64,000 bases of DNA from Patescibacteria group bacterium (GTDB lineage: Bacteria > Patescibacteriota > Patescibacteriia > 2-12-FULL-60-25), in contig JBAZVB010000002.1 in assembly GCA_041661105.1 (NCBI GenBank), positions 299,865-363,864 of the forward strand, given 5' to 3'. A program made the translations under genes and the position numbers. How positions within the stretch are numbered: the first letter of the stretch is position 1; the number at the start of each line of letters is the position of its first letter. Positions 4,503 through 64,000 of the stretch are shown here, one piece after another. The notes beneath the pieces were generated by a model. It saw nothing but the letters and a program-made list of their open reading frames with translations, was not told the origin of the DNA and did no database searches.

Positions 4503-6905
4503 TTAGAGAATGCTAATTCCAAAATAGTTGGCCAGTTGCAGGAAGGTGCCAAAAAAAGAAGCGACAATCAAAGCCGTCACGGTCAGCGGGATGGCCATAA
4601 AGGCGATAGCCGAAATCGGAAGCAGAATATCGGCAAAGATGATTACACCGTCTTTGACATTGGAGATGGTTTTCTCCAAGGGCAGGGAACCCGCGGAAGG
4701 TTTTTGTTCGAAGAAAGGTATTTTACCGTCGGCCACATGTTTATTAATAAGGTCGATATTCCATTCCACCCAGAGGGTCAACAAAGATACTCCGGATTCG
4801 CTAGAACCGATTTCACCGATATCCAAAAGATTTTTGAAAGCTTGTTTGCCGCGTTTAAGGCTCTCAATTTTAGCTTTAAAATCTTCGATCTGTTTCGTCG
4901 CTTGATCCGCCTTAAGTTTGCTGCTGACTTGGTTGGAAAGCAGTTTCAAGGCAAAGCCGATCTCATCCATCTTGCCTGGTCCGCCTGAACCGGCGGCCTG
5001 CCCCCGGCCTGCCTGCGAGACCAACTGTCTGGTAGATGGCGGCTCGGGTTTGACGTTGCGCAATCTCGAGGAAGGCGCCCCGGTCAATTGTTCTCCGGCT
5101 ACGGTGTCCCGTCGCTGTATGGCTTGGAAGGATCTCAGCCTGTCTATATCGCTCTCAGGAGTACCTCCTCCGGCTGTCTCGTCTTCTATTTCTTCTTCCA
5201 TGGCCATGGTTCCTGGACCGCGTTCTGCCTGCGGGTAATAGCCGCCCTGTTGCGCGAGCGGATTAAAAAATTGTCCGTACGCCATGGATGGGGTCAGTCC
5301 TTCTTCCATGCCTTCGGCCAGTTCTGATTCGAGCCCGCTACCACTTAATTCTAAACCTTCTTCGGTCGCCATGGCCTCTTCGTCTCCACGCTCCATGGCT
5401 CGACCTCTCCAAGCTTCGTTTTGCGCGGCGTGGAGATCCATGGCCCGGCTAATCGGAGGTTTGATTTCTTGAGGGCCAACGCTTTTAGAGCTCCTACGTC
5501 CTGGTCGTCCCAGCGTCCCAGCGTCCCACGTCCCTGGGACGACTGAAACTTGCGACGAGGGGCTTTTGGTTGTTGGCAAATTTGGCGTCCCTCTGGCTCC
5601 AAAGGCAGAGGCGGCTGACATGGGTTGTTCGGTCTGGGTCGAGGGGATAGCCAAATCCTGTCCCGTGGTTTGGGCTTGAGCGCGACCGCCGGGAGATGGA
5701 GCTTGTTCAACTTCTGTTGTCCGCCGTGTATCAGGCCGTGAAATTTCCGTCCCAGCTCCACCTTGGCGTGATGGCAGAACTGGAATTCTAGTTGCTTGAT
5801 CTGGGCCTGGTCTGGTTCCAACGAGATTTTGAGGAGAAGGAGTCGTTCGCGCGGCCGATCCCCGTGCGGGTTGGCGGCCGTACGTCCCCAAACGTGACCG
5901 ACGAGGTTGTATGGGTGTTTGCCTGGCTGGTGAAACGGATGAGATGGGCGAGAGAGGTGGCGGTAAGCTCACTTCTGATTCGGCTGGTGCCTGGATAGAT
6001 ATTTCTTTGAAAATAGCTCCGGTCTGTCCACCGGCTGTTGGAATCGGGATTTTAATCCTTGTCTCCGTTTCACCTTTGGCCTCTATTTGAGCTGTTTGAG
6101 GAGTACCTTTTCCACCAGAGGCTGTCGGAGACGGGGGAGCAGGGAGGTTGGGCGCTTGGACTTCGGCTTCGTTTTTAATTTCGCCCTCCGCCTTCAACTC
6201 GACGCCCGGCGCGGCGGGAGCGGCTCCTGTTGCTTGTTGTTGCGGTGCGGCCGCGCTCTTGGCAGGCGCGGCTATGGGCACGTTGGAAATTTCCGGACTG
6301 CGCCCTGCACCAGACGGTGCATGGCCGCGCAAAGCTGCCGGGGATGAGAGAGTTTTTTTCTGGGGAGCCGGAGTTGTCTCCTTTGTTCCACCAGCTGAAG
6401 CTCTTGTTCGTCGACTAACCGGTTTGAGCCCTGCCATGCTTCCCAGAGTTTGTCCGATGGCTCCAAAACCTTTACCCAAAACGGCAGCTTTGGCCGCATC
6501 TAATTTGGTGGATGAACCTTCTGACTTAGCCGAGGCTTCAGCCTGGCTTTTGACTTGCAGATCTTGGTAATTTCGCCGGTCGTAATCTGCAAAAAATGAT
6601 CGGGCCGGAGTTTTTAAATCTTCCGTAAAGATTTTTTTTGGTATGTAAAGGCCAGGTAATTCCTGGATTATAAAAGTGAGGTCGGGTTTGTTCCTTATAG
6701 CGGACGCCGAGTCAAACATTTTTTTGACGACCCCGCGATCAAGTTTGAAAAGATTGTTTTTAAAAGCCTCAACCGTGTCCACGCGGTTGGCTTCGTTGCT
6801 CGAATTGTAATTCGTGACCAGGTTGGCGACTTGGTCTAAGGCTTGGGATTGATTATTGACCAATCCGGAATTCGATGGTGCGTTTTGATTTTTTTCCTCC
6901 GCCAT
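4503..6905 (-). CDS. 800-aa low-complexity (Pro/Ala/Ser/Gly-rich) protein with C-terminal TM segments; function unknown
   Basis: Long ORF on the same strand and tightly packed with its neighbours. The C-terminus VIIFADILLPISAIAFMAIPLTVTALIVASFFGTFLQLANYF is hydrophobic. I recognise no domain. Confidence 0.5.
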   Translation of the reverse strand: MAEEKNQNAPSNSGLVNNQSQALDQVANLVTNYNSSNEANRVDTVEAFKNNLFKLDRGVVKKMFDSASAIRNKPDLTFIIQELPGLYIPKKIFTEDLKTPARSFFADYDRRNYQDLQVKSQAEASAKSEGSSTKLDAAKAAVLGKGFGAIGQTLGSMAGLKPVSRRTRASAGGTKETTPAPQKKTLSSPAALRGHAPSGAGRSPEISNVPIAAPAKSAAAPQQQATGAAPAAPGVELKAEGEIKNEAEVQAPNLPAPPSPTASGGKGTPQTAQIEAKGETETRIKIPIPTAGGQTGAIFKEISIQAPAESEVSLPPPLSPISSVSPARQTPIQPRRSRLGTYGRQPARGSAARTTPSPQNLVGTRPGPDQATRIPVLPSRQGGAGTEISRPDTRRTTEVEQAPSPGGRAQAQTTGQDLAIPSTQTEQPMSAASAFGARGTPNLPTTKSPSSQVSVVPGTWDAGTLGRPGRRSSKSVGPQEIKPPISRAMDLHAAQNEAWRGRAMERGDEEAMATEEGLELSGSGLESELAEGMEEGLTPSMAYGQFFNPLAQQGGYYPQAERGPGTMAMEEEIEDETAGGGTPESDIDRLRSFQAIQRRDTVAGEQLTGAPSSRLRNVKPEPPSTRQLVSQAGRGQAAGSGGPGKMDEIGFALKLLSNQVSSKLKADQATKQIEDFKAKIESLKRGKQAFKNLLDIGEIGSSESGVSLLTLWVEWNIDLINKHVADGKIPFFEQKPSAGSLPLEKTISNVKDGVIIFADILLPISAIAFMAIPLTVTALIVASFFGTFLQLANYFGISIL

Positions 6906-6956
6906 ACTTTAGAAAGTGCTTAGTCTGGCTACCGTCTACTGTCTAATAGCTATCGT

Positions 6957-9458
6957 CTATTTAAATCTCACTCCTTTGTCAGTGGCCAGGACGGTGATCT
7001 TCGACCTTTTATGTTTTGAAATGAGGTACTTGCCGAGCGGCGCGCTGATTTCTCTTTCGATGAGGCGTCTTATAGCGCGGGCGCCTTCCTCGGCCGGCAG
7101 ATTCTGTTGCATGAGCCAGTCCCTAACAGAATCGGTAACTTCGCAGGCCACACGTTGCATACGTTCCAATCGTTCGCAGACCTCGGTTAGTTCACGATCT
7201 AGAATGCGTCGTAAGTTATCAGCCGAAAGGGGATTAAAGATGATGATCCGATCCAGGCGATTAATTAATTCTGACTTGAAACGTTGTTTAACCTCGTCGC
7301 TGATCAGGGAACTCAAGTCATTGCTTTCGCGCGTAAAACCCAGATGCTTCCTTTGCAGTTGATCTGATCCGACGTTGGATGTCAGAACGATGTAGGCGTT
7401 GCGGAAAGAGATGGTCCGGCCCGTCGCATCGGTTAAACGTCCGTCTTCTAATATCTGGAGCAAAGTTTGCTGCACGTCCTGATGAGCTTTTTCAATTTCA
7501 TCAAAACAAACCACGCAGTGCGGACGTTTGCGTACGGCATCGGTCAGCTTGGTGCTCTCGCGATAACCGACATAGCCGGCCGGTGAACCTACCAGTTTGG
7601 AAATGGAGTGCGATTCGGAAAATTCCGACATGTCGAGTTTGATCAAGGCGTCTTCGCGGCCGTAGAGCTCTTGCGCCAGTGTCCTGGCTAATTCGGTTTT
7701 GCCGGTACCCGAAGGGCCAACCAAAAGCATGGTGGCTTTGGGCCGTCTGGGATCATGCAAACCAAGCCTGGCGCGACGGACAACGTCGGCCACCTGGGCA
7801 ATCGCTTCATCCTGACCCAAAACATGTTCAGCTAATCTCTCTTCCAAGCCAGTCAATCTCTCCCGTTCCGAAGCCAGGATGACTGACACGGGCACGTGGG
7901 CGATGCGGGCCACGACTTTGGCCACATCTTCCGGTTTGATAATCGGCTTGTCGTGCTCACGCAGTTCGTCTAACTCTTTCGTCAAAGCGTCGCGATCCAT
8001 TTCTAAACAGGCCGCGTCAGCCGAGGCTTGCTCGGCGGATTCCATTTCATTGCGTTGTACGTGTTGTTCAGCTTCTTCTTTTTTAGCTTTGACGGCGGCA
8101 TCCAAGACGGACAATCTTTCCATTTGGTCGCGCGATTGGCGTTTGGCTACCACCGAAGCCGCGGCTTCATCCATCAAATCAACGGCTTTGTCCGGGAAAA
8201 GCCGGTCAGTCATAAAGCGTTCAGCCAGATCAACGGCCGCTCGGAGCGTTTGCGGGTGGTATTTAACTCCGTGATGTTTGGCATACCTTTCTTCGAGTCC
8301 CTTTAGCATTTCATGCGTGGCTTCAGCGGTCGGCTCATCAATCATGATGGGCTGGAAGCGGCGTTCGAGGGCCGCGTCCGGCTCGATGTGTTTTTTATAT
8401 TCAGCCCAAGTCGTAGCGCCCACGCAACGGATTTCGCCGCGGGCCAAAGCCGGCTTGAGGATGTTGGCCGCGTCCAGTGAACCGGAAGTCGATCCCGCTC
8501 CTACGATGTTATGAATTTCATCGATAAAAAGAATGGTTTTGGGATCAAGGCGAGCCTCTTCCACTATTTGCTTGAGCCGTGCTTCAAATTCTCCGCGATA
8601 CATGGTCCCGGCGACCGTCGAAGCCAAATCGAGCGAAAGTAAACGATGGCCGTAAAGCGCGTCCGGCACATCGCCTTCTGCCAGGCGTTTAGCTAAGCCT
8701 TCGACGATAGCCGTTTTGCCGACGCCCGGGTCTCCCAGCAAAACCGGATTGGATTTGGTGCGTCTGATTAAGACCTCGATTACACGTTCAAGTTCAGCTT
8801 CGCGTCCAATCACAGGGTCGAGCTTTTCGGCGGTTTCCGGTTGTGTCAAGTTACGCGCAAAACTTTCCAAAGCCGAAGACGTCTGTTGATTGCGCCAAGG
8901 GCGTTGGCCCGGATATTGATTTTGAGCATGATCTTCTTCTGCGCCGGGCATAATGTCGTCATCATCCTGGGCGCGTTGCAAGACCTGATCCATGGAAGGG
9001 AAGTTAGAAGTTGAGCGCAGGACGCTTTCGACCTGTTCGCGCAAAGTCTTGAGCGGGATGTTATGCGATTTGAAAAAATCAACGATAGTGAGATCGTCGC
9101 ATTCGGCCAGGGCCGCGGCCAAGTGTTCGGTCCCGACGAATTTATGTTCTCTCAGGTGGGCGGTCACGATGCACTTCTCAAGAATCTTTTTGACGGCCGG
9201 AGAAAGATCCAGGGCCATGAGCGATTTATGCTGATTAGGACTGCCCCGGAAAAAATTAGCCGCTTCTTGGGCATTACAGCCGGACTTTTTAAGTATCTCG
9301 CCGCCCAAAGCGCCCTTCTCTTCCAATAAACCCACGATCAGGTCGCCCGGTTCAACGATTTCCCGTCCATTGGCTACGGCAAAATTCAACGCCTTTTGCA
9401 GCGTGTCCTTCAAGTGGTTGGTAAACCGGTGGATGAGATCGTTGGGCAACATACTCAA
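6957..9458 (-). CDS. clpC: ATP-dependent Clp protease ATP-binding subunit (ClpC-type class I AAA+)
   Basis: Clp N-domain repeats. Two Walker A sites, [15 protein letters not shown] and [16 protein letters not shown]. The short middle domain fits ClpC rather than ClpB. Confidence 0.85.
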
Positions 9459-14910: not shown

Positions 14911-15462
14911 ATGTCCAACTCCTCAAAAAAGTTAACAAAGATTCTAGATTACGGTTTAGCTTTATTATCGATTGTTATTTTTATAACGGCCTTTTTTACT
15001 TCATCCAAAGAATTTATAACTACAACGTTTTCTCAAGTCAAAATTTGCATCTCATCTTCTTTTTGTTTCTGGCCGGGATTCATAGTTCTAGCATTGTTAT
15101 TAATCTCGGCTTTGGTTTTGTTCTTGATAATACGTACGAGAACGAATAAAGAGAGATGGTATTTATCTTTAAACAAAGCAGCTTGGCCATCCTTTATTTT
15201 TGGAGCTATTTTGCTGATTGTATCAATTTTAAAATTTTCAAATGCCACGGAGTTAATAGATCTTCCCTCAATGTTATTGATGTTATTTTCTGTAATTGTA
15301 CCCTTCCTAACATTAATTATTTTCTGTATTAGTTTCATTGCAAGTCCCAAATCCAAAATAAGAGAAAACATGGTTTTCTTCAGAACTATATCGATTGTAG
15401 GTTTTATCGTGAGTTGTATATTAGGACCGGAATTATTGATAGTACTGTTTGTAATGTCTTAA
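14911..15462 (+). CDS. Small multi-pass membrane protein (183 aa), unknown function, AT-rich
   Basis: About 5-6 hydrophobic segments. Low GC relative to pheS and pheT. Confidence 0.55.
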   Translation: MSNSSKKLTKILDYGLALLSIVIFITAFFTSSKEFITTTFSQVKICISSSFCFWPGFIVLALLLISALVLFLIIRTRTNKERWYLSLNKAAWPSFIFGAILLIVSILKFSNATELIDLPSMLLMLFSVIVPFLTLIIFCISFIASPKSKIRENMVFFRTISIVGFIVSCILGPELLIVLFVMS

Positions 15463-15468
15463 GAGAAT

Positions 15469-15831
15469 ATGAAAAAAAGAATACTCGTGCCTATACTGAT
15501 TGGTTGTGCCTTAGAAATTGGGGCGGGGATCTTGTTTTTAACGAATGCCACTTCTGATTTGGTTTATACTCTGATTTTGTCCGGGCTAGTTTTTGTAGGG
15601 GTAGGAGTAGTTATTTTGATATTCGCAAAATATTTTGAAAAAAGTCATATACAAATGCATGGCATATCGTTGATACTTCTTGGATTGCTTTCAACCATTC
15701 CGATTATTTATGGTCTGGTTAAGTCCGCGTTAATGAAAGATTGGCTAGCATTTCTGATGGTATTTGTTATTTTTCTGTGTGCTTCATTTATTTGCGGTTT
15801 GGGACTATTTTTTTGGAAAATAAAACGTTAA
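15469..15831 (+). CDS. Small multi-pass membrane protein (120 aa), unknown function
   Basis: Four hydrophobic segments. Starts 7 nt after the previous stop. Confidence 0.55.
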   Translation: MKKRILVPILIGCALEIGAGILFLTNATSDLVYTLILSGLVFVGVGVVILIFAKYFEKSHIQMHGISLILLGLLSTIPIIYGLVKSALMKDWLAFLMVFVIFLCASFICGLGLFFWKIKR

Positions 15832-15871
15832 ATTCCTCGTAATTCGTAATTTTGAATTCGTAATTAAAAGT

Positions 15872-15961
15872 ATGAACCTCCTAGTCTCCTACGATTGGCT
15901 GAAAGAGTATGTCAGCCTTAAAGAAAAGCCCGAAGATTTCGCGGCGCGGATTTCGCTTTGA
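15872..15961 (+). pseudogene. Remnant of the pheT 5' end (29 codons then stop)
   Basis: About 88 nt colinear with pheT 17207 onward, with 2 mismatches that are both synonymous (GAA/GAG, TAC/TAT). Encodes MNLLVSYDWLKEYVSLKEKPEDFAARISL then TGA. Confidence 0.9.
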
Positions 15962-15987
15962 GTGGTAAAAACTAAACATTGTTTAAT

Positions 15988-16350
15988 ATGACTACGACTG
16001 ATCGTTTCGAACCATATCTTGAACCTCTGTATGTGCCAGCGTTTTTCGGTTGGTTGACTTTGATTTTTGATCATTATCTGACTCGAAGTACTTTTCTTCT
16101 GTATGTTGGCATGATTTTTTCTGGCTTACTTATTCTTACTTCAATTCTGGTCATAGTGTACGAATTTCTTTTATTTTTTAGAAGAATAAAACCACGCGCA
16201 TTGATAGATGGAAACGTTAAAATATATAAATTTATCAGATGGATATTTGGTGCAGTAGGCCTTGTTTCGGTTCTAATTTCTGTCGGGTTTATCCTTGCTC
16301 TTGGATCAATGCTGTCATCAGGTCCTTGGGATAAATTAGATCAAATATGA
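15988..16350 (+). CDS. Small membrane protein, paralogous to the C-terminal half of 16660..17172
   Basis: MTTTDRFEPYLEPLYVP... versus MTAIDPFEPYLEPLYLL... in the later gene. Three to four TM segments. The ORF track starts it at 15979 with an alternative start codon. Confidence 0.55.
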   Translation: MTTTDRFEPYLEPLYVPAFFGWLTLIFDHYLTRSTFLLYVGMIFSGLLILTSILVIVYEFLLFFRRIKPRALIDGNVKIYKFIRWIFGAVGLVSVLISVGFILALGSMLSSGPWDKLDQI

Positions 16351-16583
16351 AAAAGTCTTCCAGATACATAATAAGTGCTGTCCTGGGTGCAATAGGCGTG
16401 ATGAGCTATGTCTTTTATGTCGCTGTTACTTATATTGATTTTGATCCGGATCCAAATATTGGTAGCGTAGCCTTTGTTAAACCAGAAATAGTATCAGGGG
16501 TTATTTTATTCGGTGGTATATCGTTATTGATCGGTGCAATATTAGCAATCAGCACGTTATTCTCGAAGTCTAAAAACATATGA
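16347..16583 (+). CDS. Small two-TM membrane protein (78 aa)
   Basis: ATGA overlap with the upstream gene. Two hydrophobic helices. Confidence 0.5.
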   Translation: MKKSSRYIISAVLGAIGVMSYVFYVAVTYIDFDPDPNIGSVAFVKPEIVSGVILFGGISLLIGAILAISTLFSKSKNI

Positions 16584-16613
16584 ACCTCCTAGTCTCCTAC
16601 GATTGGCTAAAGA
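16580..16613 (+). pseudogene. Second, shorter remnant of the pheT 5' end
   Basis: atgaacctcctagtctcctacgattggct is identical to pheT 17207..17235, then the sequences diverge. Confidence 0.85.
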
Positions 16614-16623
16614 TTCTTTTGAA

Positions 16624-16654
16624 GTCATCCTGAACTTGTTTCAGGATCTCGATA
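16624..16654. repeat. Half copy of the gtcatcctgaac element
   Basis: gtcatcctgaacttgtttcaggatctcgata, identical to the copy downstream of pheS. Confidence 0.85.
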
Positions 16655-16659
16655 TCAAT

Positions 16660-17172
16660 ATGCCTAAAACAGTTTCCTTTACACTAATGATTGTTGGTTT
16701 TTTGATTTCCTCCACTCTTTGGGCTTGGATTGCTTACCCGCAACAATGGTATCCAGGGTTGTATGTCGTTGGTTTCTATGGAGTCATTTTGATGTTTATT
16801 GGAGGGATAGGAGCCCTCAAAGAAAAAATTCGTAATTTAAACATGACCGCAATCGATCCTTTTGAGCCGTATTTAGAGCCTTTATACTTACTTGTACCCG
16901 GCCCTATTGGCATCATTTTTTCTATTTTTGTTTGGGAGAATGGATTGGCTATTATGTTTTTTTACTACACGATGATGACAATTAGTGGCCTAGTTGTAAT
17001 ATATTTGGGACTTCTTATTCTCAGAATACTACCAGCCAAAGCATTGGTTAAAGAGATTGGACCAATTTATTCAAGAATAAGGTGGGTTTTGGCAACAGCA
17101 GGCGTAGCTGGATTATTTTTTACTTTTTTATGTGTCGTAGCGGCCGTTTTCAGAATAAATCTCAGTTCATAA
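16660..17172 (+). CDS. Multi-pass membrane protein (170 aa), unknown function
   Basis: Start taken at MPKTVSF. The ORF-track start at 16603 would translate the pheT remnant and the repeat (VILNLFQDL). The C-terminal half is paralogous to 15988..16350. Confidence 0.55.
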   Translation: MPKTVSFTLMIVGFLISSTLWAWIAYPQQWYPGLYVVGFYGVILMFIGGIGALKEKIRNLNMTAIDPFEPYLEPLYLLVPGPIGIIFSIFVWENGLAIMFFYYTMMTISGLVVIYLGLLILRILPAKALVKEIGPIYSRIRWVLATAGVAGLFFTFLCVVAAVFRINLSS

Positions 17173-27374: not shown

Positions 27375-27536
27375 TTGTCACCTCGACTGGAGCATCCCTC
27401 CCTTCTGTCATCTCGAGCGATAGTCTCACGCCTGAGGCGGATGCGCCTATGGAGCAGAGAGATCGCATAAACCGAAGTCACTTAGTCACATTCGACCGAC
27501 GATTTCTCGACTCGTCGTACTCGCTCGAAATGACAA
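27375..27536. repeat. MITE/REP-like inverted-repeat element
   Basis: gtcatctcgagcgatag (27407-27423) pairs with tactcgctcgaaatgac (27518-27535). An extra outer copy ttgtcacctcgac is also present. Its translation accounts for the spurious ORFs 27100..27468 and 27478..27765. Confidence 0.6.
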
Positions 27537-36823: not shown

Positions 36824-37218
36824 TGGTGGAGATGGGGGGAGTTGCACCCCCGTCCGGCAACGCATGACATGACCTTCTTTCACAAGCTTGGCTTACTCGG
36901 ATACACAGGAACCGCAGCGAGCAAGCGAGGGCCGGTTCCCGGTGGCATTGGCCTTGTCGTTTCAATTGTTATGCCAACAATTGATTCCAAGCCCGGTTAA
37001 TGACAGTCATTCCAGCCCGTCGGGCCGCAAACTGGGTGACCGCAGCAGACGCTTTAAGCGAGTACTGGTTGGAGCGAAGGCATGCGGAACGCTTGCGCGA
37101 TAGCAGCCTTGGCTTTTGATAAGACGTTGGCAATTGTCTTGTTTGACACGGTTTTACGAGTCATGTCGGCTCGGCTTGCAGAACATGGAATGACGCACCG
37201 TCGAAGCTCGGCATCCCC
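36824..37218 (-). ncRNA. ssrA: tmRNA (SsrA)
   Basis: Minus strand reads 5' GGGGAUGCCGAGCUUCGACGG... to ...GGACGGGGGUGCAACUCCCCCCAUCUCCACCA 3', that is a tRNA-like acceptor/T-arm with CCA. Internal reading frame GCC AAC GUC ... GUA CUC GCU UAA. Adjacent to smpB. Confidence 0.9.
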
Positions 37219-42045: not shown

Positions 42046-42186
42046 CCCCCTCATCCCAACCCTTCCCACCGAACTCGGGGGAAGGGCTTTATGGCTCAAC
42101 AGAGCCTCTTTTTGTTTATATCAGGCAAACAGGGTTTACGTCATCCGAATATCGATAGTAAGGTTAGCCGCAGATGCCCGATACCC

Positions 42187-42245
42187 TTGACAAATATGCT
42201 GATTTGTGCTATATTATCGTATTCTTTAAACACCAAAGTTGTGTG
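42187..42245 (+). promoter_or_regulatory. Promoter plus conserved 5' leader module, copy A
   Basis: TTGACA (42187-92), 17 nt, extended -10 TGc TATATT (42210-15), then ttctttaaacaccaaagttgtg. About 75 % identical by hand alignment to 63174..63232, with the same spacing. Confidence 0.65.
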
Positions 42246-42484
42246 ACCCTGAAGCCGTTTTGTGCCAATTGGGAAGTCTTCCTCCTCTTCTCAGGAGGCA
42301 CAGGACGGCTCTAGGGTCTCACCAACGCAGCTCACCCCAGGTTTACTTCATTGTGACTTGGGTTGCTGGGCCGCGTGGTGTGTGCCCAGTACTTTGACTT
42401 TTACGAGGGAACTAACCTGACCCGCAGACAGCGGGCAGAACATTGGATTCTGCCCCACGAACGGGCAGGAAGGAGCTCGAGAAG

Positions 42485-43828
42485 ATGAACTGGATGAAGA
42501 GTGCATTCTGGGCGGTGGCGATTTTCGTCGTCACCATGGTCTTCAACCTCAACCCGGCTCACGCCGATGGGTGGGCCCGCAAGTCGCTCGGCGACAAATC
42601 GTCCGTGATCCCGCCGACTGAGTGTCCCAATGTGAAGCTTCCTGACATGGCTCGCGACTTGTGCAAGGACGCGGCTACCAAGGCTGCTTGCCCTACCGAG
42701 TGCGCACAAGTCGCTTGCATCCAGAACTGTCTGCAGCCTCCTGCGACGCCTGCGGCCACTCCGACCCCGCCTCCCGTCAAGAAGCCGTTGACCACTCTGC
42801 CTTCTCAGCTCATCTGCGAAGGCGGAACGCAGATCACCGACGCCAAGGGAATGCCCGACTGCGGATGTTCCCCGGATAAGGTGAATCTGGAGAACGGCAC
42901 GCCCAAGGAACAGCCGAGGGTCTCCGTTCTGAAGGCCACCCGGTACGTGACCACGGCCACCACGATTCAGTTCATTCGCCACATGGTGTGCGCGAGCGAT
43001 GGCGAGGTCACCAAGATCCTCAACGACAGGTTGAACCTCCACACCAAGAAGATCGATGCTCTCGAGAAGTTCGCTCGGGAGCAGAACATCTTCGACCAGG
43101 CGGTGCTGGACCAGTTCGAAGCACTGCGGAGGCATGCCGAACAGACTCGCAGTCTCCTCCTTGTCATGGCCAAGACGGTCGAAGAACTCAACAAGAAGAT
43201 CAGCGAGTTCGACGGTGCCCTGGAGACCATGAACGCGACGTACAAGAAGTTGCGTTCTGACGTCGAGAACATCAAGAGGTTCGTGCCCCGCTTTGACCTG
43301 GCGTACTCGATCGGAGTCATGTTCCGCGGATCGGACGCCGGCGCCGGTATGACGCACCACCTGGTGGTCGGATACACTCAGACGTTCGACAATTCGCCGA
43401 TCAATGTCTGGGCTCAGGCCCGCGCCGGTTACCTGACCTGCAACGGTTGCGACCCGCGGACGGCTGGCAGTACTACGATGTACACGGGCGGCGGAGCTGC
43501 TGGCCTTGGCATCGGCCTCGGTGACAACCGAGCTTTCAGCATTCGCGCCGGCTTGTTCGCACAGCTCGTCGCCGCGCCGGATTCTCTCAAGGAGAACGGC
43601 ATGGGTCGCCAGATCGGTGGGGAACTCCAGGTTCGCTACGACATCCCCAACTTTCCGGTCTTCATCGCAGGCGTCGGAGATTTGGCCTTGTACAACAAGT
43701 CCAACTACTTCGGCAAAGCCGGCGAGCCTCCGAACAACATCCACGCGGGGGCTGATCGAAGCATGGGCGGGGCGCTCATGTTCATGATTGGCCTTTCCCC
43801 GGAGCTCCCGTTCATCGGAAGCTTCTAA
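42485..43828 (+). CDS. GC-rich secreted protein A: signal peptide, Cys-rich region, Pro-rich linker, coiled coil, Gly/aromatic beta-rich C-terminal domain ending ..FIGSF
   Basis: AAGGAG RBS 8 nt before the ATG. MNWMKSAFWAVAIFVVTMVFNLNPAHA signal. CPTECAQVACIQNC. PPATPAATPTPPPVKKP. Heptad region LNDRLNLHTKKIDALEKF... Alternating-hydrophobic strands in the last ~170 aa. Confidence 0.65.
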   Translation: MNWMKSAFWAVAIFVVTMVFNLNPAHADGWARKSLGDKSSVIPPTECPNVKLPDMARDLCKDAATKAACPTECAQVACIQNCLQPPATPAATPTPPPVKKPLTTLPSQLICEGGTQITDAKGMPDCGCSPDKVNLENGTPKEQPRVSVLKATRYVTTATTIQFIRHMVCASDGEVTKILNDRLNLHTKKIDALEKFAREQNIFDQAVLDQFEALRRHAEQTRSLLLVMAKTVEELNKKISEFDGALETMNATYKKLRSDVENIKRFVPRFDLAYSIGVMFRGSDAGAGMTHHLVVGYTQTFDNSPINVWAQARAGYLTCNGCDPRTAGSTTMYTGGGAAGLGIGLGDNRAFSIRAGLFAQLVAAPDSLKENGMGRQIGGELQVRYDIPNFPVFIAGVGDLALYNKSNYFGKAGEPPNNIHAGADRSMGGALMFMIGLSPELPFIGSF

Positions 43829-43954
43829 TCCCTCGGCTTGAGGCGGTATGAGTACTCTCATATCGCCTCCCCGACACGAGTTACCAACTGTCAGTTGATA
43901 CCTCATGTCGCTGCACGATTCATTCGCGCAGATGCTCTAAGACAACTAAAAATT

Positions 43955-44061
43955 TCCCCTCCTAATTTTAGGATGTTGTGACGGATAAAAAGGATTCAGC
44001 TACTATCGATTGTTTAAGATCCAATGTTTTAATTTTCACGGCGCCTAAAATTAGGAGGGGA
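43955..44061. repeat. 18-bp perfect inverted repeat around a 71-nt AT-rich spacer
   Basis: tcccctcctaattttagg (43955-72) and cctaaaattaggagggga (44044-61). The right arm contains AGGAGG. Confidence 0.8.
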
Positions 44062-44156
44062 GTAAATCTGTTGGCAATTTGGCCGGCAGATCAAGTGTGT
44101 CATGTTCGCGGTTGTGCTTTTGCGCACCGCGCGAGACTACGTCAAGGAGAAGGACC

Positions 44157-45503
44157 ATGAAGACGACGTTTTGGATGACTCTTGTTCTCGTGAGTGCGCT
44201 CGTCGGCTGTGCATTCGACCCCCAGCCCGAAAACGCTGGTGGTTCATCTGGCACAGCTGGAACGGCTGGCGTTGGCGGCGCGGGCGGAACCGGCGGCAAC
44301 AGCTGCGTCCCCAACTGCGGCGGCAACAGCGGCGCGGGCGGTTCGACGAAGGTCTGCAACGCGGGCAGCTTGGCTGCTTGCGAGTGCACGCCCGGCGTGT
44401 GGGGTCAGAAGACCTGCAACGCCGACGAAAAGGGCTACGGAGCCTGCTCGTGCGTTCAGCCCGGCGTGTTCTGCCGCGATGCGGACGGCGACAGCTTCGG
44501 TGATCCGAAGCAGTGCGCGCAGTACCAGAACCAGCCGAACGGCTATGTCGCGAACAGCGGCGACTGCGACGACAGCAACGCTGATGTCAAACCGAGTGCA
44601 AACGAGATCTGCGGCAACAAAATCGACGACAACTGCAACGGGCAGATCGACGAGAATTGTGCGCAGAACTACACCTTCTTCCCTGACAACGACCATGACG
44701 GTCATGGTGCGCAGGGAAGCCAGGGTGTCCAGTTCACGACGCTCACCCCGCCGTACGGCTACGCCGTGACTGCGGACGACTGCGACGACAACAACGCGGC
44801 CGTGTACAACACGTGCGGCCAGGTCTGCGTCCCCGGAGCTTCCGTCACCTGCAGTTGCGGCGCCGGATCCTACGGGAACCAGATCTGCAACTCGGCTGGC
44901 ACGGGCTTCGGCACTTGCCAGAACTGCAGCGGCGGAACTGGTGGCAGCGGCGGAACCGGCGGATCGGGACCTCACCCCACGGACTGCTCGGATCTCTCGG
45001 GCCAGAAGACGCTTCACCTCGTCGTCAATGCTCGAGCTGGGGTCACCATCCAGGTGCGCGGTGCGGCAACGTTCTGGGGCAACTACAACCAGGACGACAG
45101 CCCGGCCATGGCCTGGTGCGGACACTGGCAAGTTCCGGGGTACTACAACGACACCCCGGTTCTGAGCGCGGTGCAGCATCTCGAGGCTGACATTCCTGTT
45201 GCCATCGAGAGCAACGGCAAGGACATCCTGATCGCCGGCATCCCGCAGTGGATGGCATGGCGCGGTCAGGTATACCTCCTCGATCCCGGCAACACGGACA
45301 TCTGGCACGCCCGCTACGCATTCACCGTCAATCCGGTGGGTGCCAAAGCCGCACTTCAGGGCGATGAGTCCTGCACGCTGTACTTCGACGGCAAGGCGAT
45401 CACGGACAACTACTGCCGCGCGCTTCCGGGTGTGGGTTTCCACCAGGCCCCGAATCTGACCACTGGTCAGAACGGAGTCGTGGACAACCCGCTGAACCCG
45501 TAA
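44157..45503 (+). CDS. GC-rich lipoprotein B with MopE-type Cys/Asp 'putative metal-binding' motifs
   Basis: AAGGAGAAGG RBS. MKTTFWMTLVLVSALVGC lipobox. DADGDSFGD...DCDDSNADVKPSANEICGNKIDDNCNGQIDE and DNDHDGHG...DCDDNNAAVYN. Gly-rich linkers. Confidence 0.65.
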   Translation: MKTTFWMTLVLVSALVGCAFDPQPENAGGSSGTAGTAGVGGAGGTGGNSCVPNCGGNSGAGGSTKVCNAGSLAACECTPGVWGQKTCNADEKGYGACSCVQPGVFCRDADGDSFGDPKQCAQYQNQPNGYVANSGDCDDSNADVKPSANEICGNKIDDNCNGQIDENCAQNYTFFPDNDHDGHGAQGSQGVQFTTLTPPYGYAVTADDCDDNNAAVYNTCGQVCVPGASVTCSCGAGSYGNQICNSAGTGFGTCQNCSGGTGGSGGTGGSGPHPTDCSDLSGQKTLHLVVNARAGVTIQVRGAATFWGNYNQDDSPAMAWCGHWQVPGYYNDTPVLSAVQHLEADIPVAIESNGKDILIAGIPQWMAWRGQVYLLDPGNTDIWHARYAFTVNPVGAKAALQGDESCTLYFDGKAITDNYCRALPGVGFHQAPNLTTGQNGVVDNPLNP

Positions 45504-45571
45504 CAGCGGCAATCGCGATCGTAGCCCCCATAACTGAGCTCAGGGGCTGACGGTCAAACAACTTCAACTGG

Positions 45572-45610
45572 GGCGCTGGTCAGGATTGCTCATCCTGGAC
45601 CAGCGCCTTT
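45572..45610 (+). terminator. Intrinsic terminator after gene B
   Basis: ggcgctggtcagga-ttgctca-tcctggaccagcgcc followed by tttt. Confidence 0.65.
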
Positions 45611-45618
45611 TACGTTTC

Positions 45619-45795
45619 TAGTTAGACGATAGCTGGTAGACGATAGCTAGTAGCAAGAATTTGGCTACTGTCTAATAGCTACCGGCTATCGTCTAGTTAT
45701 AATTGGCTAACTTTACATTAAAAATAGCTACTAGCTGGTAGACGATAGCTAGTAGCTAGGGTTTGGCTACCGTCTACCAGCTACCGTCTACCAGC
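45619..45795. repeat. Two tandem TAGACGATAGC-word hairpins (backbone-type repeat) inside the GC-rich cassette
   Basis: Hairpin a at 45619-45696 and hairpin b at 45725-45795. Same word family as 32311, 35382, 36141 and 6923. Confidence 0.8.
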
Positions 45796-45811: not shown

Positions 45812-45840
45812 TTGACAAATTCACTTTTTTTTGCCTAAAT
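45812..45840 (+). promoter_or_regulatory. Promoter of gene C
   Basis: TTGACA (45812-17), 17 nt, CTAAAT (45835-40). Confidence 0.45.
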
Positions 45841-45901
45841 GCAAGCACAACCCATAGGTCAGGTCGGGCTCCCAGAGCCCAATTTCGAGGAGGATATGGT
45901 C

Positions 45902-47197
45902 ATGAACAAGGTTCTTTGGACATTCATCATCGGTTTGTTCAGCCTCGTGCTGAGCAGCCAAGCCTGGGCTGATCCCACGGCCATCGAGAAGTGCGCGGAC
46001 GCCTGCGCTCGAACCGTCAACGTCTGTCTGAACGTCAGCACGGTCGATCCACCGGTTCTGCCGGATATGGCGGTGGCCTGCAAGGACATCACCGAGTGTA
46101 AGGGCGTGGACGCCACGTTGTTCGCCACGTACTCGAAGTGGTTTGCGGAATGCGTCAAGAATCCCGGCTCCTGTCATCAAGCTTGCATCGCGCCCAAGGT
46201 CACTCCTGCGCCGACCGGCGGTACCGGGCAAACGCCTCCACCGCCCCCGCCCAAGTCGCAGCCTGCCCCCATGTCCGAAAAGGACAAGTGCGTCAAGATC
46301 CATCACGGTTACTACACCGGGATCAAGACGGAGGACGGCAAGTTCATTGAACGGTGCTACAAGATCTCGAACGCCGAGCACGATGTCGAGGCACTCAAGG
46401 CCGAGGTGGCTGCGATCAAGGCAAGGCTCGACAACGGTCAGCCCGCGGGTATCTCTCCCATGGTCATGTACCTCTACTGGCAGGTCTACCAGTTGAGCCT
46501 GGCTTCCAACGGCCACACCGAAGTCCTGAACGAGGCACGTCGCATCGTCACAGAGTTCGACGGACTCAAGAAGCGTGTCGAGGGTCTCGAGAAGCGCATG
46601 GGCGATGCTGAGCACAACATCAGTGTTGTGACTGGCAAGGTCGCTACCTTGGAAGGTCGGCCAGGATCGTCTCCGGGTCAACCGGGCGGTACGAAGCTTG
46701 TCATCAACAGGGCAGGATTGCCTTGCTGGCTCGGCGGCTACGGGTCGGTCAACACCCACAAGGTGTACGATCATCTCATCGGCTCCATCGGTGGGGAACT
46801 CGGTTGCTCGCTCTTCGGCTCCAACGACGGCGCGCACAGTTTCGTCCTGGGCGGCGGCGGCGGGTTCGTACCGAGCGAGTACTTCGCTCACAAGCTCGTC
46901 GAGCTCCATGCTCTAGCAGGGTACAAGTATCGTGGTGCAGACTACGAGCTCCTGATGACCGGTTCCGGCAAGTGGTTCAACACAACCACCTTCGAGACCG
47001 GGACCATGAGCTGGTACGGCGTCCTGCCCGAGGCCCGCTATCTCTTCGGCTCTGACAAGAACTGGTTCGTGGGCGGTCGGCTTGGTCTAGGCGTGATGAA
47101 TGTTGCGCCTCCTTTCCCGCCTGATGTGATGGCGAATGGAAGGCAGACGTCCTTCAGCGCCAACCTGTCAGGCTTGCTCGGCGCTTCGTTCCGATGA
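45902..47197 (+). CDS. GC-rich secreted protein C, distant paralogue of protein A
   Basis: GAGGAGG RBS 8 nt upstream. MNKVLWTFIIGLFSLVLSSQAWA signal. Same order of Cys-rich, Pro-rich (PPPPPPKSQP), coiled-coil and beta-rich parts. Shared LPDMA..CKD and EFDG motifs with A. Confidence 0.65.
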   Translation: MNKVLWTFIIGLFSLVLSSQAWADPTAIEKCADACARTVNVCLNVSTVDPPVLPDMAVACKDITECKGVDATLFATYSKWFAECVKNPGSCHQACIAPKVTPAPTGGTGQTPPPPPPKSQPAPMSEKDKCVKIHHGYYTGIKTEDGKFIERCYKISNAEHDVEALKAEVAAIKARLDNGQPAGISPMVMYLYWQVYQLSLASNGHTEVLNEARRIVTEFDGLKKRVEGLEKRMGDAEHNISVVTGKVATLEGRPGSSPGQPGGTKLVINRAGLPCWLGGYGSVNTHKVYDHLIGSIGGELGCSLFGSNDGAHSFVLGGGGGFVPSEYFAHKLVELHALAGYKYRGADYELLMTGSGKWFNTTTFETGTMSWYGVLPEARYLFGSDKNWFVGGRLGLGVMNVAPPFPPDVMANGRQTSFSANLSGLLGASFR

Positions 47198-47230: not shown

Positions 47231-47267
47231 GCGGTCTTGCTAATCACAGCAAGACCGCTCTTTTTTT
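47231..47267 (+). terminator. Intrinsic terminator ending the GC-rich cassette
   Basis: gcggtcttgct-aatcac-agcaagaccgc followed by tcttttttt. Confidence 0.8.
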
Positions 47268-47294
47268 ATCATGCACTTCACGTCCTCCCAGTCT

Positions 47295-47366
47295 GTCATC
47301 CTGAACTTGTTTCAGGATCCCAGCACCAATTGCTACGTGAGATGCCGAAACAAGTTCGGCATGACG
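47295..47366. repeat. Full gtcatcctgaac... two-hairpin element upstream of holB
   Basis: gtcatcctgaacttgtttcaggatc-ccagcaccaattgctacgt-gagatgccgaaacaagttcggcatgac. Confidence 0.85.
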
Positions 47367-48338: not shown

Positions 48339-48348
48339 CTCTTTGATT

Positions 48349-48415
48349 GTCATGCTGAATTTATTTCAGCATCCCACGAAGCTTCGTGAGATCCCGAAAC
48401 AAGTTCGGGATGACG
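48349..48415. repeat. Variant full copy of the two-hairpin element downstream of holB
   Basis: gtcatgctgaatttatttcagcatc-ccacgaagcttcgt-gagatcccgaaacaagttcgggatgac. Stem changes are compensatory relative to 47295. Confidence 0.85.
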
Positions 48416-62867: not shown

Positions 62868-63017
62868 AGTTCAATGCTATCGTGTGCTCCATAATCTTGC
62901 CAGGGGATAGGGCTTCTGATATTATCCCACCCGTTACGCGCATCGTGTAACGTGTAACGTTTGAAGGGTGTCGGTTCGGCGTTTCGCGATACACGTTTCG
63001 CGTTTTGCATAGTTAGA

Positions 63018-63093
<76 letters not shown>

Positions 63094-63096
63094 TTC

Positions 63097-63120
63097 AAAA
63101 AGACCCTTTTGGGTCTTTTT
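63097..63120 (+). terminator. Intrinsic terminator after tRNA-Pro
   Basis: aaaaagaccc-tttt-gggtcttttt. Confidence 0.8.
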
Positions 63121-63173: not shown

Positions 63174-63232
63174 GTTGACAAAATGGCGATTTTGTGCTAT
63201 ATTACTTTGTTCTTTAAAGTCCAAAATCGTGC
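63174..63232 (+). promoter_or_regulatory. Promoter plus conserved 5' leader module, copy B
   Basis: TTGACA (63174-79), 17 nt, TGc TATATT (63197-202), then ttctttaaagtccaaaatcgtg. Followed by the hairpin cctgaggctagatttagcga...tcgctaggttcagcctcggg. Confidence 0.65.
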
Positions 63233-63320
63233 TTCCTGAGGCTAGATTTAGCGATTTTTAAAAGTCGCTAGGTTCAGCCTCGGGAAACGCTACTCATGAC
63301 AACCAACCGGGAGAGATATC

Positions 63321-63527
63321 ATGCGAGTCAAGTATGTTACGTTCAGCATCGACGAAGGCAAGCGGCACGGGGAGAAGGCTCCAAAACAGCTCGGCATCAA
63401 TAAGGGCTACGAACACGTCAACGTCGTCTGTGAGGAGCTCGAGAAGGCGGGGAAAAAGATAGTGCGCATCTCGCCTCCGATCCCACAGTTTGGTCGTGAA
63501 GCGCTCGTCTCCATCGAGTATGAGTGA
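63321..63527 (+). CDS. GC-rich 68-aa hypothetical protein
   Basis: GGGAGAG RBS. MRVKYVTFSIDEGKRHGEKAPKQLG... Several frames are open in GC-rich DNA, so the frame is uncertain. Confidence 0.4.
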   Translation: MRVKYVTFSIDEGKRHGEKAPKQLGINKGYEHVNVVCEELEKAGKKIVRISPPIPQFGREALVSIEYE

Positions 63528-63740
63528 GCAAGCTCCTGGCGGCCTGAGACCATCTCCACCACCCGGCTTCCAACACCTCGCTCTTTCCCACTGAGTCCCA
63601 TCCCGGGACACCTCAGCCTATCGGTTCTCGGTAGGCTTCCGTTCTCAAGTGATCACGCTGTGGTCAGGTGAGAAGGGAATGAACTGGTTCGCACATTCCG
63701 CGCGGCTCGGAAAGCCGTATGCATCTTACAGGAGGACGGC

Positions 63741-64000
63741 ATGTCAAACGTGCGTCGATTCAAACTCTCGAAGTCTGCAGGAATGGTTCCGATCATCCAC
63801 TTCATCGAACGAGAAGGGAAGCGCGTCTATCGAATCTGGAGCCATCACTGTGAGTCGTACCTCACCAATGAGATGTCTCTGGATGAGGTCAGAAGCTGGC
63901 AGCTCCAGCAGGATCTCGTCGAGGCGACATCCAAAATATACCATCCAGACCCCGACTTCCTGGACATGGGCGCCAACGGGTGGTGGAGCGACGAAGCCAA
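63741..64000 (+). CDS. GC-rich hypothetical protein, 3' end beyond the window
   Basis: AGGAGGA RBS 4 nt before the ATG. MSNVRRFKLSKSAGMVPIIHFIEREGKRVYRIW... An alternative frame from 63679 is also open. Confidence 0.35.
   Translation, partial: MSNVRRFKLSKSAGMVPIIHFIEREGKRVYRIWSHHCESYLTNEMSLDEVRSWQLQQDLVEATSKIYHPDPDFLDMGANGWWSDEA

Follow-up and report, generated by a model that had tools for sequence, protein, structure and literature searches.

Two GC-rich segments of the window, the 64,000-nt stretch of Patescibacteria DNA analyzed here, are each headed by a member of a conserved promoter-leader module of the Patescibacteria (CPR), and no earlier description of such a module was found in the literature. 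In both copies the module consists of a promoter (TTGACAAA, a T-tract and TGcTATATT), a 5-nt gap, the sequence (G/A)TTCTTTAAA and then, past an unpaired spacer, a hairpin of ~30 bp with very high stability. As a mechanism, a strong promoter joined to a boxA-type Nus-factor anti-termination leader stands about an even chance of being correct.

The CPR/Patescibacteria are uncultured organisms with tiny genomes and many genes without a function, and the control of their transcription is almost unstudied. A promoter-leader unit with a boxA-like tag would be a rare handle on this group and predicts transcription start sites. Furthermore, the module would point to candidate host-interaction proteins among secreted proteins that evolve fast and are probably strongly expressed and, if the boxA reading is true, Nus-type anti-termination would be used well beyond rRNA in Patescibacteria.

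Promoters, boxA-like motif and leader hairpins of the two copies

Copies A (42187-42237) and B (63175-63225) share 37 of 51 positions. The 51-nt pattern formed by these shared positions matched the window only at the two copies themselves and was not recovered in any of 100 dinucleotide shuffles. The first-pass annotation had put the similarity at ~75% over ~70 nt with identical spacing; the similarity lies where it was reported, although global alignment of 42187-42260 with 63175-63246 yielded a slightly lower identity (53/75, 71%), and the spacing is identical up to CCAAA but requires one 1-nt indel before CCTGA. Identity was 23/29 within the promoter and 16/22 from the -10 element to CCAAA. 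The stretch past the -10 element scored 15, whereas segments drawn at random from the window averaged 6 and reached 15 in a fraction of 0.0016; it is thus significant alone, in agreement with the earlier suggestion that the likeness exceeds promoter consensus. Roughly half of the shared positions are promoter consensus, as would be expected if two strong promoters merely resembled each other by chance; the lack of shuffle matches, the significance of the post -10 region by itself and the recurrence of the motif with the same spacing in dozens of other genomes render this explanation very improbable.

Promoter A (42187-42215, + strand) contains the -35 element TTGACA (42187-42192), a 17-nt spacer with a T-tract, TG at 42207-42208 and the -10 element TATATT (42210-42215). 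Promoter B (63175-63203, + strand) is built from the same -35 element, a 17-nt spacer with a T-tract, the TG extension and TATATT at 63198-63203. Promoters were scored against the sigma-70 extended -10 arrangement, i.e. TTGACA, 17 ± 1 nt and TATAAT with TG one base upstream of the -10 element, and both qualified, each with 11 of 12 matches, a 17-nt spacer and the TG extension. The promoter A layout recurs in 33 distinct copies, while none of the other promoter-like sites of the window, including those before tRNAs and the tmRNA, had the downstream motif. Each copy is located ~55-70 nt past an intrinsic terminator: one at 42093-42115 (+ strand; GGCTCAACAGAGCC followed by a T-run), which ends the upstream backbone operon after the gene for a CpsC-like 202-aa protein, and one at 63097-63120 (+ strand) after tRNA-Pro (63018-63093). 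Since an intrinsic terminator precedes each, units A and B are independent transcription units.

Transcription typically starts 6-8 nt past the -10 element, and with a gap of 5 nt the G of the motif falls at this usual position; the transcripts of A and B are predicted to begin at 42221 and 63209, respectively. The boxA-like motif of copy A (ATTCTTTAAA, 42221-42230, + strand) would comprise the first 10 nt of its transcript and is unpaired in the predicted fold, and that of copy B (GTTCTTTAAA, 63209-63218, + strand) is likewise unpaired at the predicted 5' end. The boxA consensus GYTCTTTAANA, the NusB/NusE site of rRNA leaders that also occurs upstream of other genes, was derived by Baniulyte et al. 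2017 (PMC5725501). The sequence (G)TTCTTTAAA(A) agrees with this consensus: copy B (GTTCTTTAAAG) matches at 10 of 11 positions, copy A (ATTCTTTAAAC) at 9 of 11, and the match is perfect in several related copies (GTTCTTTAAAA). Departures from the consensus occur in copy A and some orthologues (ATTCTTTAAAC, GTTCTTTAC, and GTTCTTTT in L118), and 8 orthologous leaders all keep the core TTCTTT. A literature search for boxA in Patescibacteria gave nothing relevant, and to our knowledge a boxA that opens a transcript is without precedent.

Behind the motif, hairpin P1 of leader A (42241-42322, + strand) has 31-32 bp and an apical loop, UCUUCCUCCU, at 42277-42286, and the hairpin of leader B (63229-63290, + strand) has ~27 bp with a loop in the UUUUAAAA region. 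Both fold as originally described, with predicted energies of -53.8 kcal/mol (z -6.6) and -37.4 kcal/mol (z -7.0), respectively. The remainder of leader A (42323-42484, + strand) is structured, partly conserved in orthologues and includes the ribosome-binding site GGAAGGAG (42468-42475). From the predicted +1 at 42221 to the ATG at 42485 the leader spans 264 nt (z -6.8), consistent with the structured leader of ~260 nt seen at first pass.

Across seven sequences all 31 predicted pairs of hairpin A are kept and none are broken, with double compensatory changes at four pairs. Its 10-nt loop UCUUCCUCCU is invariant and resembles the anti-Shine-Dalgarno end of 16S rRNA; pairing with the ribosome-binding region of the first gene of unit A (A1) is predicted at -16 kcal/mol, and it is speculated that the loop could pair with the A1 ribosome-binding site. 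A covariance model of hairpin A recovered L111 at 54 bits, a locus that is orthologous but more distant and has a 202-aa gene homologue upstream, as well as L082 and L113 (E ~1e-3), in which the leader occurs in another context; the matches lie at L111 1013-1098, L082 1185-1274 and L113 1732-1823. Hairpin A may represent an uncharacterized cis-regulatory RNA motif in several Patescibacteria leaders behind the module. The same model had no match to copy B (63229-63290), not even with the cutoff relaxed to E ≤ 10; the two hairpins show no detectable relationship, and hairpins behind module copies in other genomes are unrelated in sequence. Hairpins A and B are different RNAs, not one family. The proposal of a shared regulatory RNA with covariation is retained for hairpin A among its orthologues but does not extend to copy B and, because the model of hairpin A misses B and the other hairpins are unrelated, the segment CCTGARGC, which had been taken as a strand common to both hairpins, is not evidence of a common hairpin. 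A search of Rfam 15 (gathering score and E ≤ 1) matched neither leader and yielded tRNAs, the tmRNA and chance hairpins in the window. An attenuator or terminator role for the hairpins was rejected due to the lack of a U-tract; the sequence behind the hairpin is CAACGCAGC in copy A and TACTCATGAC in copy B.

Recurrence and geometry of the module

An exact-pattern scan (TTGACA-N14-TGNTATATT-N6-TTCTTTAAA) of one genome per species across 185,579 species yielded 16 matches, at least 13 of them in Patescibacteria (Uhrbacteria, Magasanikbacteria and Parcubacteria), and three metagenome-assembled genomes (MAGs) contained two matches each. Patescibacteria hold a few percent of the bases in the scanned collection by our own rough estimate, and 13 or more of 16 matches therefore represent a strong enrichment. 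Together with the metagenome scan described below, the search for further copies placed the module in many Patescibacteria genomes. The exact-pattern scan of 2.9 million viral contigs returned 0 matches, giving no sign of a phage origin. Within the genome under study, only two copies were present in ~83 kb.

Conservation also extends to positions on which the pattern placed no constraint, namely the AAA behind TTGACA, the T-tract and the TG ahead of TTCTTTAAA. Compared over 60 nt, copy B shows 86-88% identity with counterparts from other MAGs (L014, L016 and L007) and 79% with copy A; neither the flanking DNA nor the genes downstream in those MAGs are related to what surrounds copy B. Conservation sets in sharply at the -35 element and fades ~25 nt into the predicted transcript, a reach that fits a shared RNA-level signal.

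In the metagenome scan the gap between the -10 element and GTTCTTTAA was free at 2-9 nt, with the motif itself fixed in the scan patterns. There were no matches with gaps of 2 or 3 nt, five with 4 nt, 34 with 5 nt, and 13, 14, 9 and 12 with 6, 7, 8 and 9 nt, respectively. After deduplication of all fetched loci and the window, a gap of 5 nt was present in 48 of 97 distinct copies and a gap of 2-3 nt in none, the latter fitting a motif that needs to be fully transcribed. The preference for 5 nt could instead reflect common descent of the copies and not a functional need.

Copies with the 5-nt gap have the motif downstream of the predicted start, with a mean of 7.6 of its 10 nt predicted unpaired. 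DNA from +100 to +1100 of these copies averages 8 GC points above the upstream DNA (22 of 23 loci positive, p = 4e-5; the 23 loci include orthologous loci and are not fully independent), compared to a shift of 1.3 points (p = 0.43) for copies with other gaps. Similarly, folding of the first 120 nt of the leader had a median z of -3.9 for 5-nt gaps and -0.9 for other gaps (p = 7.5e-4). The association of the module with compositionally odd DNA, noted from the two copies of the window, is thus statistically supported for the 5-nt geometry as a link with GC-richer downstream DNA. The first downstream open reading frames behind 5-nt-gap copies in other genomes were without a Pfam family in 9 of 9 tested, and several are lipoprotein-like; at one module locus of another genome a gene for ValRS is located 444 nt downstream. 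Three copies with gaps other than 5 nt lie directly upstream of clusters of one to six tRNA genes, multi-tRNA clusters being the classical boxA setting. No rRNA genes were found downstream of module copies.

Genes and composition of the GC-rich segments

Unit A encodes three proteins, all with a signal-peptide-like N-terminus. Gene A1 (42485-43828, + strand; GC3 0.78) encodes a secreted protein of unassigned family; it carries a signal peptide and a coiled coil, and its C-terminus is predicted to form an 8-stranded beta-barrel. Gene A2 (44154-45503, + strand; GC3 0.79) encodes a Cys-rich secreted protein with a MopE metal-binding motif, and gene A3 (45899-47197, + strand; GC3 0.76) a secreted distant paralogue of A1. 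A1 and A3 have a common layout of Cys-rich head, Pro-rich linker, coiled coil and Gly-rich C-terminus, and both have an aromatic residue in the last or second-last position (F in A1, F then R in A3). The structure model of A1 is of moderate confidence, with a pLDDT of 61 overall and of 75-88 at the C-terminus, where eight long strands resemble the barrels of OmpW, OmpA, OmpX and Ail. Predicted barrel ends on A1 and A3 are odd, as CPR are usually thought to be without an outer membrane; the barrels might insert into a host membrane. Searches of the cargo proteins against PHROGs, NCBIfam and Pfam returned weak coiled-coil-type matches and the one MopE motif.

The intergenic spacers of unit A measure 325 and 395 nt. 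The A1-A2 spacer holds an inverted repeat (TTTCCCCTCCTAATTTT ... AAAATTAGGAGGGGA, 43952-43968 and 44048-44064) that encloses an AT-rich stretch of ~80 nt. Between A2 and A3, a terminator-like hairpin with TTTT (45560-45605, + strand), read by eye, is a candidate read-through site, and a promoter-like sequence (TTGACA-17-CTAAAT, 45812-45840), with no boxA, precedes A3. An intrinsic terminator (47231-47258, + strand) marks the end of the segment.

Unit B begins with gene B1 (63321-63527, + strand), which encodes a 68-aa protein of no known family (GC3 0.71; ribosome-binding site GGAGAG at 63310-63315), followed by B2 (63741-64000, + strand), which runs off the window and encodes a protein of ~161 aa, also of no known family. 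The window is identical to the public contig ENA ERZ27249449 k141_584429 up to 63711, past which unit B has a different second gene: in the public contig (L003 9156-8758, - strand) a 122-aa gene starting at 63712 is in the place of B2. The switch occurs ~25 nt before the start codon of the second gene and 500 nt after the module, and the difference looks like a strain-level gene swap.

The window backbone has ~49% GC, with richer DNA at 42.2-47.2 kb (56-62% GC) and from 63.2 kb onward. Backbone GC3 is mostly 0.50-0.60 with a few values of 0.63-0.71, and ribosomal protein genes range over 0.58-0.71 (L20 0.71, L35 0.63, L33 0.58), compared to 0.76-0.79 for the island genes. Island A, as the segment of unit A is called here, is syntenic in several related species, where it follows the genes for SmpB, a PDZ protease and the 202-aa protein, and this synteny persists even where backbone proteins have diverged to ~55-75% identity. 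Outside these syntenic related genomes A1 and A2 had no full-length relatives, and recent import from a GC-rich donor was rejected on this basis. Because island A is syntenic and the relatives of A1 and A2 are confined to related genomes, the segments are resident loci rather than the compositionally foreign genes of the first reading.

The encoded proteins are highly variable. Between the window and L028, backbone proteins are 80-93% identical and protein A1 45% identical, and between L021 and L022 the values are 95-100% and 51%. Nucleotide identity of L021 with L022 is 96% from the module across the leader and into the first ~140 nt of A1; further on, the two are unalignable or ~70% identical, and identity returns to 95% past the island. 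A role for the module as a cassette boundary, also proposed at first, is contradicted by this continuity: variation starts inside A1 and, in unit B, ~25 nt before B2, and the module is therefore not the boundary. The GC-rich segments are long-resident hypervariable loci with unusual codon composition, which corrects the view of them as recent foreign DNA to one of loci with their own codon usage.

The richness in GC3 is possibly due to codon choice tied to expression, to GC-biased repair where recombination is frequent or to alleles being exchanged repeatedly. High-expression codon bias as a full explanation fits only partly, given ribosomal GC3 of 0.58-0.71 against 0.76-0.79. In an AT-rich relative (36% GC) islands have 52-59% GC, and shifts from 36% to 55-59% GC are too large for codon bias alone. 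At one of the two islands of this relative, a similar promoter and hairpin occur without boxA: in L068, an Uhrbacteria contig, the island at 6400-8000 is headed at 6140-6370 by TTGACAAAT...TGGTATAAAT and a long hairpin with no boxA-like motif, and GC-rich islands are thus not always tied to the motif.

Other compositional and repeat features were observed in the window. An AT-rich segment between pheS and pheT (14911-17172; 34-37% GC, GC3 0.27-0.35) contains four small open reading frames without a family and is a compositional anomaly opposite to the GC-rich units. Intergenic hairpins made of short oligomer repeats and the complements of these (GGTAGACGATAGC..., CGTGTAACG..., CGGAGAGCG...) occur at 45616-45702, 45728-45789 and 62940-63010, and also at L068 6200-6280, in the leader of L011 and at L021 3990-4090, i.e. 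in several Patescibacteria contigs and often beside promoters, up- or downstream. A repeat of ~70 nt, 82% identical between 47294-47366 and 48348-48415 and containing the palindrome CTGAACTTGTTTCAG, flanks the gene for DNA polymerase III delta', and a second repeat family is present at 27376-27512 and at intergenic sites beyond the window (L003 5095-5150 and 6550-6713). The tmRNA gene (36824-37218, - strand) encodes an unusually long predicted tag peptide, ANVLSKAKAAIAQAFRMPSLQPVLA.

Candidate mechanisms and related systems

In the boxA-type reading, the near-consensus sigma-70 promoter with its extended -10 would give strong initiation, the transcript would open at 42221 or 63209 with (G/A)UUCUUUAAA, read as boxA, and an unpaired spacer of 10-20 nt would lead to the long, very stable and copy-specific hairpin. 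In known systems boxA RNA is the site of the NusB-NusE(S10) dimer, which forms a termination-resistant elongation complex with NusA and NusG. By analogy, NusB-S10 would bind the GUUCUUUAAAG RNA, an anti-termination complex would be assembled, and transcription would escape being cut short by Rho or by internal hairpins. This would matter because unit A has long untranslated structured stretches, namely its 264-nt leader and its two intergenic spacers, and the cargo served would be GC3-rich, fast-evolving genes without a family, including those of secreted proteins. What the analysis demonstrates is the module together with its spread, fixed geometry, hairpins and GC association; the start site, Nus binding and anti-termination at the module are inferred. 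Genes for NusA, NusB, NusE, NusG and Rho were not found among the ~40 window open reading frames scanned and the flanks (~83 kb of the genome), and a search of the fetched loci for NusB, NusG and Rho with approximate E. coli queries gave one weak and uninformative NusB-like match on an unrelated contig.

A strong promoter whose first ~25 transcribed bases act without Nus factors, in start-site choice, promoter escape, protection of the mRNA 5' end together with the hairpin, as an RNase III processing site or as a translation signal, would account for several of the same observations and is given roughly one chance in four. The very tight 5-nt geometry suits a role at the start site or in the initial transcribed region, long near-perfect hairpins come after the motif, the anti-Shine-Dalgarno-like loop of hairpin A has its predicted pairing with the ribosome-binding region, and high GC3, also found in the L20 gene, hints at high expression. 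Left unexplained are the coincidence of the conserved sequence with the boxA consensus and the same 9-mer after tRNA-cluster promoters at other gaps.

Both of these readings are more likely than two others, in which the module is a mobile promoter or the conserved bases are a DNA operator. Spread of a reused promoter cassette within and between genomes, serving as a platform for the capture and expression of foreign genes, would explain the same 60 nt before unrelated genes in one genome and in others, the closer likeness of copy B to foreign copies than to copy A, contigs with two copies 0.4-1 kb apart, the exchange of B2 between two otherwise identical contigs, and the GC shift of DNA downstream of the module. 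It is nevertheless unlikely: neither an integrase or transposase nor flanking repeats were seen, variation begins and ends inside coding sequence and away from the module, island A is syntenic across species, and the viral contigs had no matches and the ~83 kb of its own genome just the two copies. Slightly more doubtful still is an operator near +1 for a shared transcription factor that co-regulates the units. The conserved block does overlap the predicted start, a common operator position, and copy B contains the palindrome CTTTAAAG, but this palindrome is missing from copy A and the orthologues (TTCTTTAC, TTCTTTT), no second half-site or dyad is conserved, and copies at gaps of 4-9 nt exist.

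The boxA-type reading invites comparison with the boxA/Nus leaders of rRNA operons, lambda nut and suhB (PMC5725501), with which the module shares an 11-nt U-rich motif of the GYTCTTTAANA type, predicted here to be single-stranded in the 5' part of the transcript, and a position upstream of long or poorly translated RNA as well as of tRNA clusters. The module differs in that its motif is at the very 5' end as predicted, fixed 5 nt past the -10 element, in that it heads protein-coding operons of unassigned function and not rRNA, and in its hairpin of ~30 bp whose sequence is not conserved; furthermore, a variant of the motif is present in the single 16S leader of CPR type that was readable. A boxB hairpin adjoins boxA, and the hairpin of the module is comparable. 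RfaH with ops/JUMPStart and the leader hairpins of LoaP are dedicated leader signals of special operons. Like these, the module is a short leader element that recurs ahead of numerous operons, unrelated to each other and frequently variable or surface-related, whose transcription it would render resistant to termination, although its motif is boxA-like and not ops-like (the best matches to the ops element GGCGGTAGnnTG in the leaders had 2 mismatches in 8 and were inside hairpins) and no NusG paralogue was identified in the ~83 kb searched.

Reused or 'mobile' promoters are near-identical promoter segments upstream of non-homologous genes. The promoter-plus-leader segment of the module likewise stands before unrelated genes several times per genome, but its copies are only 71-79% identical within this genome and are conserved across distant genomes, which points to functional selection and not to recent copying. 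An integron platform (Pc, attI and cassettes) also has a promoter region before genes that vary and are odd in composition, and unit B offers a case of gene exchange between strains; in contrast, each unit has its own promoter and the variation boundaries are within genes. No integrase was present among the module neighbors and no attC-like sites were found.

It is tentatively suggested that Patescibacteria may tag GC3-rich, hypervariable genes without a family, many of them for secreted proteins and plausibly involved in host contact, with a dedicated module of fixed-geometry promoter, 5'-terminal boxA-like tag and hairpin; transcription of such genes would be termination-resistant and possibly co-regulated, and the module could be a portable anchor for the recombination and expression of new variants.

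Sequences related to the motif, but not identical to it, were also observed in other contigs. In L107, a contig of CPR type, GTACTTTGACAACA lies ~130 nt ahead of the 16S gene, and in contig L040 TTTCTTTGACCA is present twice. The CPR-like 16S leader that was readable, in one contig, has its own promoter without boxA at +1. In copy A, the GU-rich stretch after the spacer (UGUGUGAC) may recall the boxC of E. coli rRNA leaders.
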